DNA of 64,000 nt from a bacterium (GCA_021786945.1 JAJYMK010000003.1:151299-215298), one strand, 5' to 3'; positions 49,905 to 64,000 are shown, counted from the first letter of the stretch. Numbers and translations are program-made. Notes: generated from the letters alone by a model not told the origin.

Positions 49905-49979
49905 TTTCCGGTCTTTGAATTATTTTAATTATAACTGATTTTTTTATCCGAATAAATACTGTATAATAAATAGGAAAAT

Positions 49980-51083
49980 ATGTTGGCTATCTACAGAAAA
50001 TATCGTCCTAAAAAACTTTCTGAATTGCTGGGTCAGGAGCATATTATTGAGGTTCTAAAAAATTCCGCCAGGCAAAATAGGTTCGCCCATGCTTATTTGT
50101 TTTATGGTTCTAGAGGTTCGGGCAAAACGACAACCGCTCGTCTTTTGGCTAAACTTGTTAATTGCGAAAAAAGAATAAAAGACGAAAAATTTAGGGAAAA
50201 AGGAGAGCCTTGTAATGAATGCCGGGCTTGTACCGAAATAGATTCAAACCAAGCCTTGGATGTTGTAGAAATTGATGCGGCTTCAAACAGGGGTATAGAC
50301 GAAATCAGGGATTTAAAAGAAAGTATAAAGCTATCCCCCATTTATTTGTCTAAAAAAGTTTATATTATCGATGAGGTTCACATGCTTACTCGTGAAGCGT
50401 TTAATGCTCTTTTGAAAACATTGGAGGAGCCTCCGGCACATGCAATTTTTATTTTGGCTACAACGGAATATGAAAAACTTCCCGCCACAATTTCTTCCAG
50501 AACGCAAAAATTTAATTTTAAGAAATTATCCATTGCTGATATTTTGAAGAAATTGAATAGCGTTGTAAAAGCTGAAAAAATAAAAATTTCCGATGAAGCC
50601 TTGGAACTGATTGCTTCGTTGGGCGAAGGCAGTTTTCGCGATGCTGAATCGCTTTTGGATCAGATAGCTTCTATGGACTCAGATATTGAGCTTAAAGATG
50701 TAGAAAAAATTGTCGGGAAAATCGGCTATAAAAAAACTGCGGAATTGGCCGGGCTACTGCTTTCCGGTGATTTAGATAAGTCATTAAGTTATTTATCTCA
50801 GATAAATGAAGAGGGATATAATTTGGTTCAATTTAATAAAGACTTAATTCATTATTTGAGACGTGCATTAGCTTTGAAGCTTAGCCCGAAGGTAGAAGAA
50901 TTTTACAAAAAAGAACTTACTTCCGATAATTTAGAAGGTTTGAGGAAAAATTCCCTTTTGATAAATCCGGAAAAGCATATAAATCTTTTAAAATCTTTTA
51001 TTCGTGCATATTCGGAAATGCGCTATTCCCCGTTTCCTATTGCCCCATTGGAAGTCGCTGTTATAGAAAATCTAAAAAAATAA
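49980..51083 (+). CDS. dnaX: DNA polymerase III gamma/tau subunit (short, gamma-like)
   Basis: RPKKLSELLGQEHI...HAYLFYGSRGSGKTTTARLLAK...C-x-EC-xx-C zinc module, and DEVHMLT (Walker B). Confidence 0.88.
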   Translation: MLAIYRKYRPKKLSELLGQEHIIEVLKNSARQNRFAHAYLFYGSRGSGKTTTARLLAKLVNCEKRIKDEKFREKGEPCNECRACTEIDSNQALDVVEIDAASNRGIDEIRDLKESIKLSPIYLSKKVYIIDEVHMLTREAFNALLKTLEEPPAHAIFILATTEYEKLPATISSRTQKFNFKKLSIADILKKLNSVVKAEKIKISDEALELIASLGEGSFRDAESLLDQIASMDSDIELKDVEKIVGKIGYKKTAELAGLLLSGDLDKSLSYLSQINEEGYNLVQFNKDLIHYLRRALALKLSPKVEEFYKKELTSDNLEGLRKNSLLINPEKHINLLKSFIRAYSEMRYSPFPIAPLEVAVIENLKK

Positions 51084-58615: not shown

Positions 58616-58686
58616 TGCCGGGTCGTCTAACGGTAGGACATCGCCCTTTGGAGGCGAGTATCGGGGTTCGAGTCCCTGCCCGGCAG
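58616..58686 (+). tRNA. tRNA-Gln (anticodon UUG)
   Basis: Cloverleaf: acceptor TGCCGGG pairs with CCCGGCA. D-arm GTCT...GGAC. Anticodon stem TCGCC/GGCGA with loop cTTTGGa (anticodon TTG). T-arm CGGGG-TTCGAGT-CCCTG. Discriminator G, no encoded CCA. An extended -10 (TGTGATAAT) lies about 30 nt upstream. Confidence 0.85.
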
Positions 58687-58689
58687 CTC

Positions 58690-59397
58690 CTAAGTTTGCA
58701 GTTTATATAATTCTTCTAACGCTATAACATGGCTACAAATTTTTTTCTGTGTAAAAAAATCACAATCACAAAGCCATTGATTGTCTCGTTTTATTAAATT
58801 TCTAGTACCGTGTTCGGCATCTATTGTGGCTTTTTCTAATTCTATTTTGAATCTTCTGGGTTCATTTATATATTTTTTAGCTTTAATAATTTTTCCGATT
58901 AAATCCTCAACAAATTTTTGATTTAATTCCCTATTATTTTCAGTTAATTCAATTAATATTATATCCTTTCTTTTTTTAATATTTTCAATAAAATCGTCAC
59001 TATATATTTTAGATAAAGTTACTAAACAAATATTGGGAGAATTTAATATTAAATTGGTTGCTTTTTTAAATTTTTCTGAATAAAGTTCCATTTGTCCAAT
59101 CTCATCTAAATATAAAAGATCCCCTTCTTTAAATTGAAGTATTTCGGGAATGACTAATTCTAGATTGTTTATATCTACAAAATATCTTGAAACTTTATAT
59201 TCTGTTAAAAAATTAACACTTGCGAGCATGGCCTTTTTGCCGGTGCTGGTTACTATTTCAAAACCAACCCTTTCGCCATTTTCGCGAACTTCGTTAGTAA
59301 CAAATCCAACTTTGTTTGGATAACTCAAAATGACTTTATTTAAGAGTGTAGACTTACCACTTCTTGGCATTCCCGTAACAATAATATTTTTTCTCAT
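58690..59397 (-). CDS. THEP1-like NTPase fused to a C-terminal SWIM zinc finger
   Basis: Walker A IIVTGMPRSGKSTLLNKV, Walker B LLYLDEIGQMEL, and C-terminal W-x-CDCDFF...CSHVIA (CxC...CxH SWIM). The track ORF extends to 59478 across the 32-bp repeat; I prefer the start at M28 (59397). Confidence 0.6.
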   Translation of the reverse strand: MRKNIIVTGMPRSGKSTLLNKVILSYPNKVGFVTNEVRENGERVGFEIVTSTGKKAMLASVNFLTEYKVSRYFVDINNLELVIPEILQFKEGDLLYLDEIGQMELYSEKFKKATNLILNSPNICLVTLSKIYSDDFIENIKKRKDIILIELTENNRELNQKFVEDLIGKIIKAKKYINEPRRFKIELEKATIDAEHGTRNLIKRDNQWLCDCDFFTQKKICSHVIALEELYKLQT

Positions 59398-59438
59398 TAG
59401 ATAAATATTATCACATTTGTACGGCTTCTTTTTCTTTG

Positions 59439-59470
59439 AAAAAGGTTCCAACTTCGTCCCAGACGGCCAG
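59439..59470 (+). repeat. 32-bp direct repeat, copy 1: AAAAAGGTTCCAACTTCGTCCCAGACGGCCAG
   Basis: Identical 32-mer also at 60113-60144 and 63049-63080, same orientation, all intergenic. Confidence 0.9.
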
Positions 59471-59536
59471 CAAATCAATCCCCTATTTTTAAATCAAAAC
59501 TATTGATATAATTTTTGTATTAAATTTTTAAAAATT

Positions 59537-60088
59537 ATGAATAATATTTTTAAATCTAAAATCAAAAGAGAAATTGTCAATTTTTTAACCGGCGAAAAAT
59601 ATGAAATGCTTGGTGGCTTAGACATGTCTTTTTCGGAAGATGATGTTAAAAAGATTACAAAAATATGTTCCCAAAAAGATGCTTACGATATTTTATTTAA
59701 AAATAGATTAAGCGGAAAGCCTTATACAGAAAAAAATGCCCGGAGTTTTATAGATTGGATTAAAGACGGTTGGAAAAATCAAACTCATTTTGTGTTTTTG
59801 ATAAGAAAACAAGATTCGGAGATAATTGGCGCCATTGATATAAAAAGCCCCGATCTTAATAGGGCTGAGATTGGATATTGGGCTGATGAAAATTATAGAG
59901 GTTTTATGACAAGCGCTGTAAATGAATTATTTTTTATAGCAAAAGAAAGTGGTTATATTAAATTATTTGCCGGAGTTTTGGCTAAAAACAATAAATCTAT
60001 TGCCGTATTAGAACGTACTGGTTTTAGGAAGGTAAAAGAAGATAAAAAAGACGGCGAAGATCATTTCATATACGAAAAAGAATTATAA
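59537..60088 (+). CDS. GNAT family N-acetyltransferase (RimJ/RimL-like)
   Basis: ...HFVFLIRKQDSEIIGAIDIKSPDLNRAEIGYWADENYRGFMTSAVNELFFIAKESGYIKLFAGVLAKNNKSIAVLERTGF: GNAT motifs A/B. Confidence 0.75.
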   Translation: MNNIFKSKIKREIVNFLTGEKYEMLGGLDMSFSEDDVKKITKICSQKDAYDILFKNRLSGKPYTEKNARSFIDWIKDGWKNQTHFVFLIRKQDSEIIGAIDIKSPDLNRAEIGYWADENYRGFMTSAVNELFFIAKESGYIKLFAGVLAKNNKSIAVLERTGFRKVKEDKKDGEDHFIYEKEL

Positions 60089-60098
60089 TCTTAGCTTA

Positions 60099-60839
60099 GT
60101 GATTACCTTCAAAAAAAGGTTCCAACTTCGTCCCAGACGGCCAGAATACACCATAAAAGACGGCGTTGTTTTGGAATCAGAGCTAATAAAAAATCGTTTT
60201 TTTGATTCTAAACAAATTAAGAATTTAAAAGAATCAGTTGAGTGGAGAAGCGTTCCCTTATTTAATATGAATTACCCGATTAATCTTTATATATTATCAA
60301 AACACCCAGAAATAATTTCTAAAGAAGATTATAAAAAGTTTTTAAGACAATCACTTGAGAGAATAAAATTAGGCGTTTTAAAAGCAGAGGAAAATGTTAA
60401 GGGGGATGGACATAATTATTTAGAAATTACAAATAACTATGCCGGTAAGAGCATATGGTTTTCAGAAGAACGGGTAGTAAAAGAAGGAGATGATAAATAT
60501 AAAAAAATATCAGAATATGCTGAAAAATTTGTTAAAGATTTATTTGATCAGAATTCATCTAAATATGTGGGTATAACAAAGGATGAATATCAATTGAGTA
60601 ATGAGATATTAGAATATATAGAAAAATTAATTAATAATATAGAGATAGCCTCAAAAAATAAAGATGTTTTTAAAATTAAATATTTAGTTGCATCTATTTT
60701 TTTAACATTTATAATTTCTTTGATTGTTAGTTGGTTTGTAAAAATAAACGCATTTATTATTTTTATAGTCGTTCAAATAGTTACTTTTTTTCAGGCTTTT
60801 ATTGGTGGCTGGATAGATAAAAAAATTAAAAAAAGATAA
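60099..60839 (+). CDS. Hypothetical protein with two C-terminal TM helices (start uncertain)
   Basis: The ORF from a GTG at 60099 contains repeat copy 2. An internal ATG at 60267 (MNYPINLY...) is a more likely start. Confidence 0.35.
   Translation: MITFKKRFQLRPRRPEYTIKDGVVLESELIKNRFFDSKQIKNLKESVEWRSVPLFNMNYPINLYILSKHPEIISKEDYKKFLRQSLERIKLGVLKAEENVKGDGHNYLEITNNYAGKSIWFSEERVVKEGDDKYKKISEYAEKFVKDLFDQNSSKYVGITKDEYQLSNEILEYIEKLINNIEIASKNKDVFKIKYLVASIFLTFIISLIVSWFVKINAFIIFIVVQIVTFFQAFIGGWIDKKIKKR
60113..60144 (+). repeat. 32-bp direct repeat, copy 2
   Basis: Identical to copy 1. Confidence 0.9.
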
Positions 60840-60875
60840 ATCCCATTCCTTTGTAAAAATAGGTATTCAGGTATC

Positions 60876-61700
60876 ATGAATAAAGTTTTTAAATCACAAG
60901 AAGAATTAAAAAAAGAATTAGATTCACAATTCAAACTTCTAAAAGTTTTAACCGAGCAATATGACAAAGGCGATGTGATTATAGGAAAGTCGATAGCGAC
61001 TTCTATTCGGGTACTTGTTCATGACACAGATGATTCGCGCTCTTTGCTTGGGCAACTTAATTTTAAAAATAGAAAATTTTTTGACACGGCCTGCCCCGAC
61101 ATCTTTCCTGTACCAGGAAAAATTCAGCGTATTGGAAGTTTTTGTGGCTTAGTAAGTATCGGTAGCGTTAATAATGAGCAGACTTATATCCCCTATCTTG
61201 ATGAGGCTCCTGTTAAAAAATTTGGTTTTGTAAATTTTGATGAGTTTTGGAATAGGATAATTTTTATTGATAATAATAAAAACAGCTTTACAAGAAAAGA
61301 AATAGTTTTGGCTATTGCTAACCAAGATGGTGGTGCGCACGTTGATCCAAAAATTGAAAAAAAATACAAAGAGTTATCTAGAGAGAATTCTCTTGGTTGG
61401 AAAGCTAGTTTAGACGGAAAAATTTGGAATGATTCATGCGGTTCTGAGCTGGCTGCAGTACGTCAAATCGCACATGAGTTACTGCGCACATTTGAGATCG
61501 AATATCCTTATAAAAAAATGGTGACCGGTGATGCCGGATTTATTTTAGGTGGAATGGGTTTTATAATTAGTAATACCACCGATGTAAATAGTATTACGGA
61601 TTATTTGGTGAATAAGAAAAAAATTGGACCAAATAAAAAATGTCTATGCGGAAGTGGTCAGAAATATAAAAAATGTCATGGAAAGTATGGTTGGATATAA
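60876..61700 (+). CDS. SEC-C motif domain protein (C-terminal CxC...CH metal-binding motif) with an unknown N-terminal domain
   Basis: C-terminus KKCLCGSGQKYKKCHGKYGW is a SecA-C/YecA-type SEC-C motif. I recognise no family for the N-terminal domain of about 250 aa. Confidence 0.55.
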   Translation: MNKVFKSQEELKKELDSQFKLLKVLTEQYDKGDVIIGKSIATSIRVLVHDTDDSRSLLGQLNFKNRKFFDTACPDIFPVPGKIQRIGSFCGLVSIGSVNNEQTYIPYLDEAPVKKFGFVNFDEFWNRIIFIDNNKNSFTRKEIVLAIANQDGGAHVDPKIEKKYKELSRENSLGWKASLDGKIWNDSCGSELAAVRQIAHELLRTFEIEYPYKKMVTGDAGFILGGMGFIISNTTDVNSITDYLVNKKKIGPNKKCLCGSGQKYKKCHGKYGWI

Positions 61701-61718
61701 TTTTATAAAATTATATTT

Positions 61719-62468
61719 TTATGCCTTACTATTTCTAGATAATACTTCATTTAATTTATAACAAAATTCAGAATTAAAAACTGGTTCTATATATGTATCA
61801 TCTAGGTATTTTTTTAATCCGGCTAAATTTTCAATTATATAAACAAGGGGCTCTATTCGTTCAATAACTTTAGATTTGCCAACCAACAAAATAGCCTTCC
61901 TTGATTTAATTACTATTCCTTGTTTTTCGAGATAATTAATTAATTTTAGTTCGTGTCTATTAATTTCATCGATTGGATTTTGCCATTTATTTAATTCACA
62001 AATACATTTATTTCCTTTACACCACTCTTCTTTAAAAAATTTATCGCCCAAAACTCTGAAATTGCCAGATATATTTTTAATTTCAAATATCAATAAACCT
62101 TTCTTACCAACTACAATTGCATCAATATCAAATCCTCCATCTGAAAATTTAAAATTTTTATAAATTTTATAACCCTCATTATTTGGCAAGAGCTCTTCTA
62201 ATTTTTTAAAGGCCCTTCTTTCACCCATCCATCCCATAAGAGAATGCAATGAAATAAGTCCCAATCTATCCCCTAATCGTCCCATAAAAATCCAAAACCA
62301 AGAAAATATAATTCCGAATATTATTCCAGCGATAAATAATAAAGCTGGAACGTCTAGTTTAAAATCTTTTAAATTAGTAAGACCATATAAAATTACTGAT
62401 ATACCAAATAGCAATAAAGCTATTACTATAATTGTTACTTGCAAAAATTTACGTTTAGAATAAGACAT
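61719..62468 (-). CDS. NERD (nuclease-related domain) protein with two N-terminal TM helices
   Basis: GERRAFKKLEELLPNNEGYKIYKNFKF...GGFDIDAIVVGKKGLLIFEIKNISGNF...WQNPIDEINRHELKL: NERD pattern. Confidence 0.6.
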   Translation of the reverse strand: MSYSKRKFLQVTIIVIALLLFGISVILYGLTNLKDFKLDVPALLFIAGIIFGIIFSWFWIFMGRLGDRLGLISLHSLMGWMGERRAFKKLEELLPNNEGYKIYKNFKFSDGGFDIDAIVVGKKGLLIFEIKNISGNFRVLGDKFFKEEWCKGNKCICELNKWQNPIDEINRHELKLINYLEKQGIVIKSRKAILLVGKSKVIERIEPLVYIIENLAGLKKYLDDTYIEPVFNSEFCYKLNEVLSRNSKA

Positions 62469-62537
62469 TTTAAAATTATATCAAAATATTATTGACTATT
62501 AAATTTATTAAACATATATTAAATTTACAAATAAAAT

Positions 62538-62996
62538 ATGGATACTAAATTTCCAAAACTTGATAAAAAATTTATTAACTGGTCGACATTTTTTCATGCG
62601 GGTACTGAATGGTTAGAGATATTTGAAATATTAGACAAAGAAACAAATAAACAATATGGATTTATTTCTTTTTACGCATATCCGTATATTTTGTATTTTT
62701 CTTTAGAACTTTTTGTGAAATCATTAGCAAAATATGAGGACTGTACTTTTGACGCAAAAAAAGACGGGTTTCTTCACAGTGTAACGGATATATTTGTAAA
62801 ATATAAAGATATTCCATTTTTTTTTGAAATTATTCAGAATCACAAACTTTTTAACCTTATTAAAGAATATGAGAAAACTTTAAATACGCGTTTTGGCGAG
62901 ACGGCTGTGCAAATAAATGGATTAGATACTAAATTAGTATTAGAAACGGTTTATAAATTAAGAGGAGAAATATGTAAAAAAACAGGATTAAGATAA
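62538..62996 (+). CDS. Hypothetical protein (152 aa)
   Basis: ORF only. Confidence 0.3.
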   Translation: MDTKFPKLDKKFINWSTFFHAGTEWLEIFEILDKETNKQYGFISFYAYPYILYFSLELFVKSLAKYEDCTFDAKKDGFLHSVTDIFVKYKDIPFFFEIIQNHKLFNLIKEYEKTLNTRFGETAVQINGLDTKLVLETVYKLRGEICKKTGLR

Positions 62997-63048
62997 TAAC
63001 GCATTCGGAGATCTCAATAGCATATTAGATATATATAATATTTTTTAT

Positions 63049-63080
63049 AAAAAGGTTCCAACTTCGTCCCAGACGGCCAG
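63049..63080 (+). repeat. 32-bp direct repeat, copy 3
   Basis: Identical to copies 1 and 2. Confidence 0.9.
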
Positions 63081-63101
63081 CTCTCACTTTTTGAAAATAC
63101 T

Positions 63102-64000
63102 TTATTTTTGAGTATTATATATTGATAAAATTTCTATAGTAGATAGGGCCCTATTATAAACAGCAAACTCATCAATTAATCCATTAAAACAAAAATTAGT
63201 TGGAACGTAAAAAGTTCCAATTGTAGCGGTACTACCAGCTCCTCTGATTATTGTTCCTGTTTGAGTTGGGGTCGGACCCTTTAAAACCCCGTTTCTATAT
63301 AAATACATTTTTGATCCATCATAAACCAAGGCAATATGAGTCCACTCCCCGGTGTTTAAAATTACATCTCCAGAATTTGGCTGTAGTGTTACAACGCCTG
63401 AGGTTGTTTTTATACGAAATAACAAATTGTCAGGGTAAATAAAAATTCCCCAAGCATCATTATAATCACCCGACCACCCCAAAATTCCTTTATTGCTTTG
63501 ATCTATGGTTGGGTTTATCCAAAATTCAAGTGTCAGCGCCGACATTCCAACTAATGAAGTGGCTGCGCCTATATCAATATAGTCATTAATTCCGTCAAGA
63601 TTTATTGCGCTACCAATGACTCCCGTAGACCATGTCGGGTTATTTATTAAAGTTCCATTATTAGTATTTAATTCGTCGTAAGCGATATTTCCCGAGTTTT
63701 CGTCAAAATTCCAATAAGCAATGAGTCCATTTGTTGGAACATGATAAAGATTTTTATTTAAATTTAGTTCATTCCCAGCCTCAAACCTGGTACTGGATTG
63801 TCCCCCATCCGACGAAGCATTGGCGGCAAGATATTTGTCGGATTCCATGGTAGCAGAAAGAGCCCAGGAACCGTGGATATAGGTGTAGTAATAACCATTG
63901 GTAGCGGCAGCGGATAGATCGGATGCCTGAATGGGATCTATGGGAAGATTTGAGAATAAAGTTCCGGCTTGTCCTTGTATAGAACTTAGATCTACAGGTA
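63102..64000 (-). CDS. LamG/concanavalin-A-like (Laminin_G_3) domain protein, 5' partial (continues beyond the window)
   Basis: ...LTLEFWINP...EWTHIALVYDGSKMYLYRNGVL...IDEFAVYNRALS...: Laminin_G_3 jelly-roll. The reading frame stays open upstream of the track's Met at 63848, with no stop, out to position 64000. Confidence 0.6.
   Translation of the reverse strand, partial: PVDLSSIQGQAGTLFSNLPIDPIQASDLSAAATNGYYYTYIHGSWALSATMESDKYLAANASSDGGQSSTRFEAGNELNLNKNLYHVPTNGLIAYWNFDENSGNIAYDELNTNNGTLINNPTWSTGVIGSAINLDGINDYIDIGAATSLVGMSALTLEFWINPTIDQSNKGILGWSGDYNDAWGIFIYPDNLLFRIKTTSGVVTLQPNSGDVILNTGEWTHIALVYDGSKMYLYRNGVLKGPTPTQTGTIIRGAGSTATIGTFYVPTNFCFNGLIDEFAVYNRALSTIEILSIYNTQK

Follow-up and report, generated by a model that had tools for sequence, protein, structure and literature searches.

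Direct repeats beside a tRNA-Gln gene in a bacterial genome: probable attP-arm scars of serial large serine recombinase insertions

What has placed three identical 32-bp direct repeats, with blocks of genes between them, beside a tRNA-Gln gene in a bacterial genome? The question was raised by a stretch of 64,000 nt (GCA_021786945.1 JAJYMK010000003.1:151299-215298), which is called the window in the following. We put the probability at roughly two in three that the 32-mers are attR-type scars, namely the P-arms of attP sites left by serial insertions at tRNA-Gln that were mediated by large serine recombinases (LSRs). An earlier note on this DNA had described the 32-mer as present three times in the same orientation, intergenic, and found nowhere else in the 64 kb, and searches with mismatches and with a profile bore this out. 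The three copies were identical over 32 nt, with 0 mismatches, all were located on the + strand (Table 1), and they were spaced by 674 and 2936 nt. A fourth copy was not found in the window even when three mismatches were allowed, and 0 were expected from 100 shuffles. A profile built from 128 copies taken from other genomes retrieved only the same three copies, with E values of about 1e-12, while the next match had E=2.6. Two called open reading frames (ORFs), 58690-59478 and 60099-60839, run through copies 1 and 2, respectively; true starts at 59397 and about 60267 are likely and would put both copies in intergenic DNA. The GC content was 26-31% over the region from 58 to 63 kb, compared with 33-43% in the rest of the window.

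The repeat, referred to as the motif below, turned out to be widespread in Patescibacteria. An exact 22-nt core was present in 12 GTDB species-representative contigs, and an exact 20-nt core in 68 metagenome contigs; the 22-mer core had no match in IMG/VR. The carriers belonged to Saccharibacteria, Paceibacterota, Kaiserbacteria, Nomurabacteria and other Patescibacteria, and the flanks of the motif-bearing contigs were mutually unrelated. A motif core of about 27-33 nt was near-identical in some 80 contigs, all recruited via exact 20-22-mers, from widely differing Patescibacteria. The conserved stretch of ~33 nt begins with an A six bases 5' of GTTCC and extends through ...GGCCAGC. Nothing was conserved outside of it, and the sequence logo contained no information past position +27. 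When mismatches were allowed, 148 motif copies were found, and their orientation was uniform within the locus in 40 of 40 multi-copy loci. The largest arrays contained eight copies (locus L032) and six copies (L015). In the other loci the spacings ranged from 141 to 5100 nt, and genes were present in the intervals.

For quantification, units were defined as the intervals between consecutive boundaries (n=91), and their genes were called with a simple ORF heuristic with a minimum of 50 aa. The median unit length was 600 nt (interquartile range 412-801), 58 of the 91 units contained a single gene, and 81% of the unit genes shared the orientation of the motif. The stop codon of the upstream gene was located a median of 19 nt 5' of the motif, and the next start codon a median of 73 nt 3' of it. 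The units encoded, for example, NUDIX, isochorismatase, GNAT, methyltransferase, peptidase S51, P-loop kinases, TIR-like proteins and DAGK, and their contents were almost never homologous from array to array. Intrinsic terminators were often found beside the motif, and, by inspection, the units appear to have promoters and terminators of their own.

One unit did not seem to encode a protein. It comprises ~230 nt between two motif copies (L070, 236-470 on the + strand of the stored locus), and a homologue is present in L052. It contains a long closing helix, GGUGCUUGAGCGA...UCGCUCAAGCACC, and an intrinsic terminator of its own. Its folding yielded a minimum free energy of -87.7 kcal/mol (z=-4.26 versus shuffled sequence), and it had no Rfam match even at E<=10. 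It may represent an undescribed small RNA that is carried as a unit.

The arrays were found to have a polarity that is set by tRNA-Gln. In 18 unique loci, a tRNA-Gln gene (anticodon ttg or ctg; identified with ARAGORN) was located 5' of the first motif and on the motif strand. Because the genes between tRNA-Gln and the first motif were unrelated among the loci, the variable region is bounded on the left by the end of tRNA-Gln itself. Many other loci contained, at the same place and in the same orientation, an orphan fragment that resembles the 3' end of tRNA-Gln, GTTCGAGTCC..G.C...CA. Both tRNA-Gln 3' ends and such orphan partial copies were counted as B-type sites. In 69 unique loci, for which 196 kb of upstream and 156 kb of downstream sequence were scanned, the strand of the motif carried 34 B-type sites ahead of the first motif copy and none downstream, and the opposite strand carried two. 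According to our own arithmetic, the chance that all 34 are upstream is about 2e-9. Upstream sequence exceeded 1.2 kb in 42 unique loci, and 28 of these had a B-type site. The window shows the same feature: its island abuts a specific tRNA gene, and the units are separated by putative att repeats in tRNA orientation. In addition, a dnaX gene precedes tRNA-Gln by a few kb in the window (about 49974-51080) and in 15 related loci, and thus the neighbourhood of the array is conserved across distant lineages of the Candidate Phyla Radiation (CPR).

How is the motif related to the tRNA? The motif has the layout GGTTCCAA-CTTCG-TCCCAGACGGCCAGC, and the 3' ends of tRNA-Gln, GGTTCGAR-TCCnnGyCnnnCAGC, can be aligned with it once its five central bases are removed. 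The 5-nt insertion of the motif is thus located between GGTTC.A and TCC..G.C...CAGC. Of the 16 positions that do not vary among 18 distinct tRNA-Gln ends, 15 were matched by the motif. On average, 16.8 of 23 positions matched between the motif and tRNA-Gln ends, compared with 10-15 when other tRNAs of these loci were aligned, and the motif was more conserved than the tRNA-Gln end itself. For LSRs it has been reported that the attP half-site comprises 25 bp and that the motif bound by the zinc-ribbon domain is 5 bp nearer to the centre in attB (PMC3783163). The motif and the tRNA-Gln end follow this rule for the recombinase-domain and zinc-ribbon-domain blocks, as they share the same two blocks and the motif is 5 nt longer. 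The relation between the two is the known geometry of LSR attP versus attB half-sites, which would make the motif an attP-type arm and the tRNA-Gln end an attB-type arm.

At a few junctions a full dyad was observed, GTTCCAAC.TCGTCCCAGACGGC-CA-TAGTT(9 nt)TTTGGAAC (Table 1), which places the site centre at CA and indicates half-sites of about 23-25 bp. CA is found at the equivalent position in the motif and in the tRNA-Gln end and is the candidate crossover dinucleotide. An orphan B-type site in L032 (position 687) and in L016 (position 2089) is fused at CA with the right arm of these junctions, termed P', and a single gene (DAGK) and then the long motif come next. Given these predicted arms, the order is B-P' ... 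P-B' (attL...attR), as expected from the integration of a small circle. Hybrid sites with half a motif were found in only two plausible cases, which is near chance level.

The candidate enzyme was found in related loci. The L047 array contains an intact LSR of 488 aa that adjoins a gene for a rolling-circle Rep protein. The terminal 12 nt of tRNA-Gln are shared with the 3' end of the LSR gene, and the other end, 4.8 kb off, carries a motif copy. Five further members of the LSR family (54-90% identity; L090, L096, L102, L109 and L110) had the same arrangement, so that all six of six elements, whose LSRs are homologues with 54-94% identity, consist of a Rep-LSR module, in which the 3' end of the LSR gene overlaps the oppositely oriented tRNA-Gln, and a tRNA-oriented motif 4-6.7 kb away. 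The LSR proteins of these six loci contain Resolvase, Recombinase and Zn_ribbon_recom domains. The far-end motif copy was more degenerate in L109 and L110 than in L090, L096 and L102. L096 encodes a second LSR of 608 aa, which overlaps the far motif in the same way as the first LSR overlaps tRNA-Gln, indicating tandem elements. Fragments of LSR genes were also found inside arrays (L021/L069 and L052), while most arrays lack any recombinase. The LSR family comprises 2855 proteins at E<=1e-30, many of them named Patescibacteria and many encoded on long contigs.

Variation between genomes was observed at the edges of the motif arrays. L016 and L066 have flanks with 79-93% identity (an Ada-like gene on the left and a gene for a 130-aa protein on the right), and the units in between differ: L066 contains one unit of 105 nt, and L016 contains the DAGK unit plus a second unit on the other strand. 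The homology extends to the stop codon that precedes the B-type site and returns at the last motif. Another two loci, L052 and L070, have one unit in common, after which L052 has an additional unit of 437 nt.

We propose the following explanation for these results. The 32-mer would be the P-arm of an attP site, made up of one 25-bp half-site, an A-rich flank and the central CA. The attP site would belong to a Patescibacteria-wide family of small integrative elements that encode a rolling-circle Rep and an LSR and use the 3' end of tRNA-Gln as attB. Integration would join the tRNA end (B) to the P' arm of the element beside the LSR gene, and the P-arm would stay behind at the far junction (attR). 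Later insertions next to the tRNA would shift the older units to the right, so that the order B, unit, P, unit, P, unit, P is generated. The window would then be read as B, NTPase-SWIM, P, GNAT, P, four genes, P, and would record three insertions. Its units would have lost their recombinase and Rep modules, or never had them, such that only the cargo between the P-arm scars remains. The motif may be so well conserved because one pair of LSR domains has to read the conserved tRNA end as well as the LSR's own attP arm.

This explanation agrees in outline with the earlier note, which had suggested tandem att duplications: the B-then-P polarity, the 5-bp shift, the LSR elements and the polymorphism at the motif edges all speak for that idea. 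Its question whether the motif marks boundaries of gene blocks elsewhere is answered in the positive by the arrays with units between the copies in many Patescibacteria contigs. The note had further held that a genome-wide dispersed repeat unrelated to block boundaries, or invariant gene content among related strains, would speak against it. The repeat did prove to be widespread and polymorphism was lacking in the window's species, but the copies mark block boundaries in other genomes. The guess that an integrase is encoded just past position 64000 was not upheld. The recombinase is tRNA-proximal in the six related elements, where the window has the NTPase-SWIM gene; the contig sequence covered ends about 88 nt past the window.

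Several observations weigh against the proposed LSR insertions. A gene or remnant of an LSR or Rep was not found in the 64-kb window (hidden Markov model of 24 LSRs, best E=0.14), and therefore the link to the enzyme comes from other genomes. A recognisable P' arm is missing after most motif copies, among them the three in the window, and the P' arm beside the LSR genes is no evident mirror image of P. The dyads and B-P' junctions are few and possibly from related genomes, and thus they are not independent cases. Because of the recruitment with exact 20-22-mers the conservation of the core is overestimated; the secondary copies of the arrays, which were found by the mismatch search only, still had mostly 0-3 mismatches. 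In the window's species, 5-7 contigs from other samples showed no presence/absence polymorphism; in one contig from another sample, k141_919906, a single G->A exchange in motif copy 3 was accompanied by the same units. No free attP was found in IMG/VR, a database from which relatives of the LSR are almost absent. To our knowledge, canonical LSRs recombine attP only with attB and do not act on attL- or attR-like sites. Tandem arrays therefore require attP x attL/attR events or a regenerated attB. Lastly, tidy single-gene units with near-perfect motifs do not look like the product of random decay, but more like captured cassettes.

The last point leads to a variant that refines the LSR explanation and does not exclude it. 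The arrays could be an analogue of integrons based on serine recombinases, in which P'-gene-P cassettes without a recombinase are caught one by one at tRNA-Gln or an orphan B site by an LSR acting in trans; they would then be working platforms for gene capture and not decayed elements. The unit statistics resemble those of integron cassettes, the cargo is extremely diverse with almost no homologues across arrays, and a recombinase is absent from most arrays. Single genes preceded by P' and followed by P were found in L032 (2934-3534 and 3534-4083) and in the DAGK unit of L016 and L032. A clear P' arm is, however, present at only about six junctions and is missing from the units of the window, and most units could not re-form attP, since the logo is empty beyond +27. 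Neither a circular cassette nor an empty site was seen, and we know of no LSR that uses attL-like targets. We therefore regard this variant as a tentative possibility, and its widest form, an integron-like capture platform of the whole phylum served in trans by LSRs from small Rep-LSR plasmids, as doubtful. A third proposal, that the repeats serve as short homology anchors over which naturally competent CPR cells exchange, acquire or shed units by RecA-dependent recombination across 27-33 bp without a site-specific recombinase, would fit with conservation in sequence and not in structure, with the identity of the three window copies over 32 nt and with the lack of a linked recombinase in most arrays. 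It does not account for the left boundary that is tRNA-like and 5 nt shorter, the polarity or the boundaries shared with LSR elements, and the dyad-symmetric junctions argue for binding of a recombinase dimer; we consider it unlikely.

It is quite unlikely that the motif has a present function in cis, for example as an insulator or terminator, an RNA processing site or an operator, such that the arrays are punctuated operons. Its position just past stop codons and ~70 nt before the next start, the frequent neighbouring terminators, its sequence conservation across classes and its location beside apparently housekeeping units (DAGK and the unit resembling a non-coding RNA) would agree with such a role. 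The folding energy of the motif was no better than that of shuffled sequences, its small hairpin showed almost no covariation, and it had no Rfam match even at E<=10, findings that also ruled out a structured RNA. Furthermore, only three copies exist in 64 kb, all of them in the island, and a cis function would leave the tRNA-Gln polarity, the 5-nt relation and the co-location with LSRs unexplained. A true integron, a cluster of attC sites lacking an integron integrase (CALIN), or another tyrosine recombinase system (Xer/dif or phage Int) is very improbable. The array layout would fit, and GTTCCAAC-TTC-GTCCCAG loosely resembles the R''-L'' part of the aadA1 attC. There is, however, no inverted partner of the motif within 150 nt, which ruled out an attC-like hairpin, and there are no dif-like palindromic arms. 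Within the limited sensitivity of the searches, a tyrosine recombinase was detected neither in the window nor in ~490 kb of related loci, using phmmer with a XerD query and the H-x-L-R-H/Y-type motif. Of the resemblance to integrons claimed in the earlier note, the small, co-oriented and mostly single-gene units remain, while IntI and an attC-type palindrome are missing.

Further candidates were rejected. A plain duplication of a tRNA 3' end does not explain the motif, which is not a sub-sequence of a tRNA, has five extra nucleotides and is better conserved than the tRNA. The spacings here (674/2936 nt) and elsewhere (141-5100 nt), with genes in between, exclude an array of clustered regularly interspaced short palindromic repeats (CRISPR). 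Readings as dif/Xer sites or Tn7 ends were discarded because palindromic arms and inverted copies are lacking, and a repetitive extragenic palindromic (REP)-like repeat because of the presence of only three copies in the 64 kb, all within the island, the uniform orientation in 40/40 loci and the lack of a significant hairpin. A phage origin was likewise set aside, as the 22-mer core had no match in IMG/VR.

The features of the tRNA-Gln locus are compiled in Table 1. The genes listed for the array in the earlier note (NTPase-SWIM, GNAT, a transmembrane protein, SEC-C, NERD, an unknown protein and LamG) were recovered with the same content by Pfam and ORF analysis. Its idea of a defence locus was not substantiated: PADLOC found no complete defence system in the window, and the matches were at the level of domains only (NERD to PglW/MkoA, the SEC-C region to E2 models, and the P-loop to mad8). 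Homologues of the GNAT protein in other CPR genomes (67-77% identity) are not flanked by the motif, and the remaining unit proteins of the window had no homologues in any related locus compared. The cumulative GC skew of the window (1-64000) rose steadily to about 40 kb and was flat afterwards.

Table 1. Features of the tRNA-Gln locus in the window (positions counted from its first nucleotide) and of related loci (positions within the locus named).
Feature	Position	Strand	Basis or remark
tRNA-Gln (anticodon ttg), left anchor of the array	58616-58687	+	ARAGORN; Rfam tRNA 58.7 bits
Predicted attB-type (B) half-site, tRNA-Gln 3' end GGTTCGAGTCCCTGCCCGGCAGC	58665-58687	+	Matches the motif once 5 nt are removed
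Candidate crossover dinucleotide CA in the B half-site	58684-58685	+	Centre placed via dyad-symmetric junctions of other loci
Unit 1 cargo, NTPase_1 + SWIM zinc-finger protein, 235 aa from ATG	58690-59397	-	Pfam E=6.9e-39 and 1.8e-4
Motif copy 1, 32-mer AAAAAGGTTCCAACTTCGTCCCAGACGGCCAG	59439-59470	+	Core GTTCC...GGCCA at 59445-59469
Unit 2 cargo, GNAT acetyltransferase, 183 aa	59537-60088	+	Pfam Acetyltransf_3 E=1.5e-17
Motif copy 2, 32-mer AAAAAGGTTCCAACTTCGTCCCAGACGGCCAG	60113-60144	+	
Unit 3 cargo, four genes	60145-63048		
Unit 3, membrane protein	ORF 60099-60839, likely start about 60267	+	No Pfam family
Unit 3, SEC-C-motif protein	60876-61700	+	Pfam SEC-C E=1.2e-5; motif at the end of the protein
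Unit 3, NERD protein	61719-62468	-	Pfam NERD E=1.3e-17
Unit 3, 152-aa protein	62538-62996	+	No Pfam family
Motif copy 3, 32-mer AAAAAGGTTCCAACTTCGTCCCAGACGGCCAG, right array edge	63049-63080	+	
Right flank, Laminin_G_3 (LamG-like) protein	63102-64000	-	Pfam E=3.5e-25; continues past the window end
Full-dyad junctions	L032 2934 and 3534; L070 504; L015 1704		
'LIGVILGDG' protein	L008 2341-3045; L047 1457-2164 (oriented); L076 just upstream of 8419		
Defence-type cargo stretches of Rep-LSR elements	L090 845-8003; L110 5726-8207; L102 987-1882		

Some additional observations were made in the related loci. The Rep-LSR elements often carry cargo of a defence type, including ThsB_TIR, Mrr/NTPase, restriction-modification, a SMODS/DncV-like cyclase with DUF2726, and HEPN. 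The codons for the invariant Trp-Asn of the LSR, read on the tRNA strand, have the sequence AAAGGTTCCAA and are located ~90 nt from the tRNA-Gln end (L090, L096, L102 and L047). The outer block of the motif consists of this very 11-mer in identical orientation, and the occurrence of the 11-mer inside the LSR gene is probably a coding coincidence. In two assemblies, L096 (17548-18675) and L101 (1321-2448), the same two genes (251 and 109 aa) are located on opposite sides of an identical Rep-LSR-tRNA-Gln module and in opposite orientation, which could be due to an inversion around the element or to a misassembly. Directly upstream of tRNA-Gln, several unrelated loci encode a protein of 234-235 aa with the LAGLIDADG-like sequence 'LIGVILGDG'. 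A different repeat family adjoins a GIY-YIG gene in another Patescibacteria contig (L085, 2276-2410 and 2703-2796); it contains a perfect 27-mer, CGTCATTGCGAGCGGAGCGAAGCAATC, twice at a distance of 108 nt, plus related copies. Two contigs of the window's species, L003 (Logan, 2964 nt) and L107, have both ends inside the motif. Short-read contigs thus begin and stop within the motif, showing that assemblies break there.

The mobile elements of CPR bacteria and the routes by which they exchange genes are poorly known. If the LSR explanation is true, a single short sequence that is easy to search for would flag, in many CPR/Patescibacteria genomes, the principal hot spot of gene gain. In addition, natural attP/attB pairs would be predicted for an LSR family with more than 2800 relatives, which could be of use in genome engineering and possibly as a genetic tool for CPR bacteria. 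It would also raise the question of how enzymes restricted to attP x attB build tandem arrays of attP arms. If the arrays are platforms for capture instead, reduced genomes would possess a dedicated accessory-gene array with a fast turnover, and LSRs would have to be active on attL-like targets. For annotation, the motif accounts for assembly breaks and for ORF calls that run through the repeat. Islands anchored at tRNA genes, as in tycheposons, are known, whereas a phylum-wide version based on LSRs and with arrays of attP arms appears to be undescribed. In the literature, of which our coverage was incomplete, no description was found of the motif sequence, of CPR integrons or cassettes, or of such serine recombinase arrays. 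LSR-based attP-arm arrays thus seem to be new and deserve a dedicated study.

How does the locus compare with known systems? With LSR systems such as the Listeria A118/LI integrase, Bxb1 and phiC31 it shares a pair of sequence blocks found in both the long and the short site, the outer of which is displaced outwards by 5 bp in the long one, half-sites of about 25 versus 20 bp, a candidate central dinucleotide common to both sites and, in related loci, a recombinase with Resolvase, Recombinase and zinc-ribbon domains whose gene is located beside one junction. It differs in that the predicted attB is located in a tRNA gene, the units are small, Rep-bearing and plasmid-like rather than phages, and the predicted P-arms form direct tandem arrays in which most units lack a recombinase. 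As in integrons and CALINs, small, diverse and co-oriented units each end in a repeat resembling a recombination site, and the cargo includes GNAT, NUDIX and isochorismatase. In contrast to these, IntI, attI and attC hairpins are lacking, sequence and not structure is conserved, and the units apparently have their own promoters and terminators. Integrative mobile elements exploiting Xer (IMEX) at dif and the pdif modules of Acinetobacter plasmids are likewise short modules that are bounded by a site of ~28 bp and have the recombinase encoded elsewhere. Unlike these, the present arrays have no Xer-type palindromic arms and no nearby Xer-like gene, and their anchor is tRNA-Gln and not the replication terminus.

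Among the situations described, tycheposons come closest. In Prochlorococcus, these elements integrate serially at tRNA genes, and the older ones are pushed into the island, leaving partial tRNAs and degenerate remnants (10.1101/2020.12.28.424599). Both cases have in common a streamlined host genome, a fixed tRNA gene, att repeats between the units, an outward displacement of older units by newer ones (predicted for the present arrays), degenerate remnants, modules with cargo only, and cargo that is defence-related or metabolic. Tycheposons, however, mostly use a tyrosine recombinase and have plain partial-tRNA repeats, whereas the repeat found here would be an attP-type mimic that is 5 nt longer and better conserved than the tRNA. 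Also unlike in tycheposons, this repeat is common to a radiation at the level of a phylum, and many of the units that it delimits are single genes of 350-800 nt.

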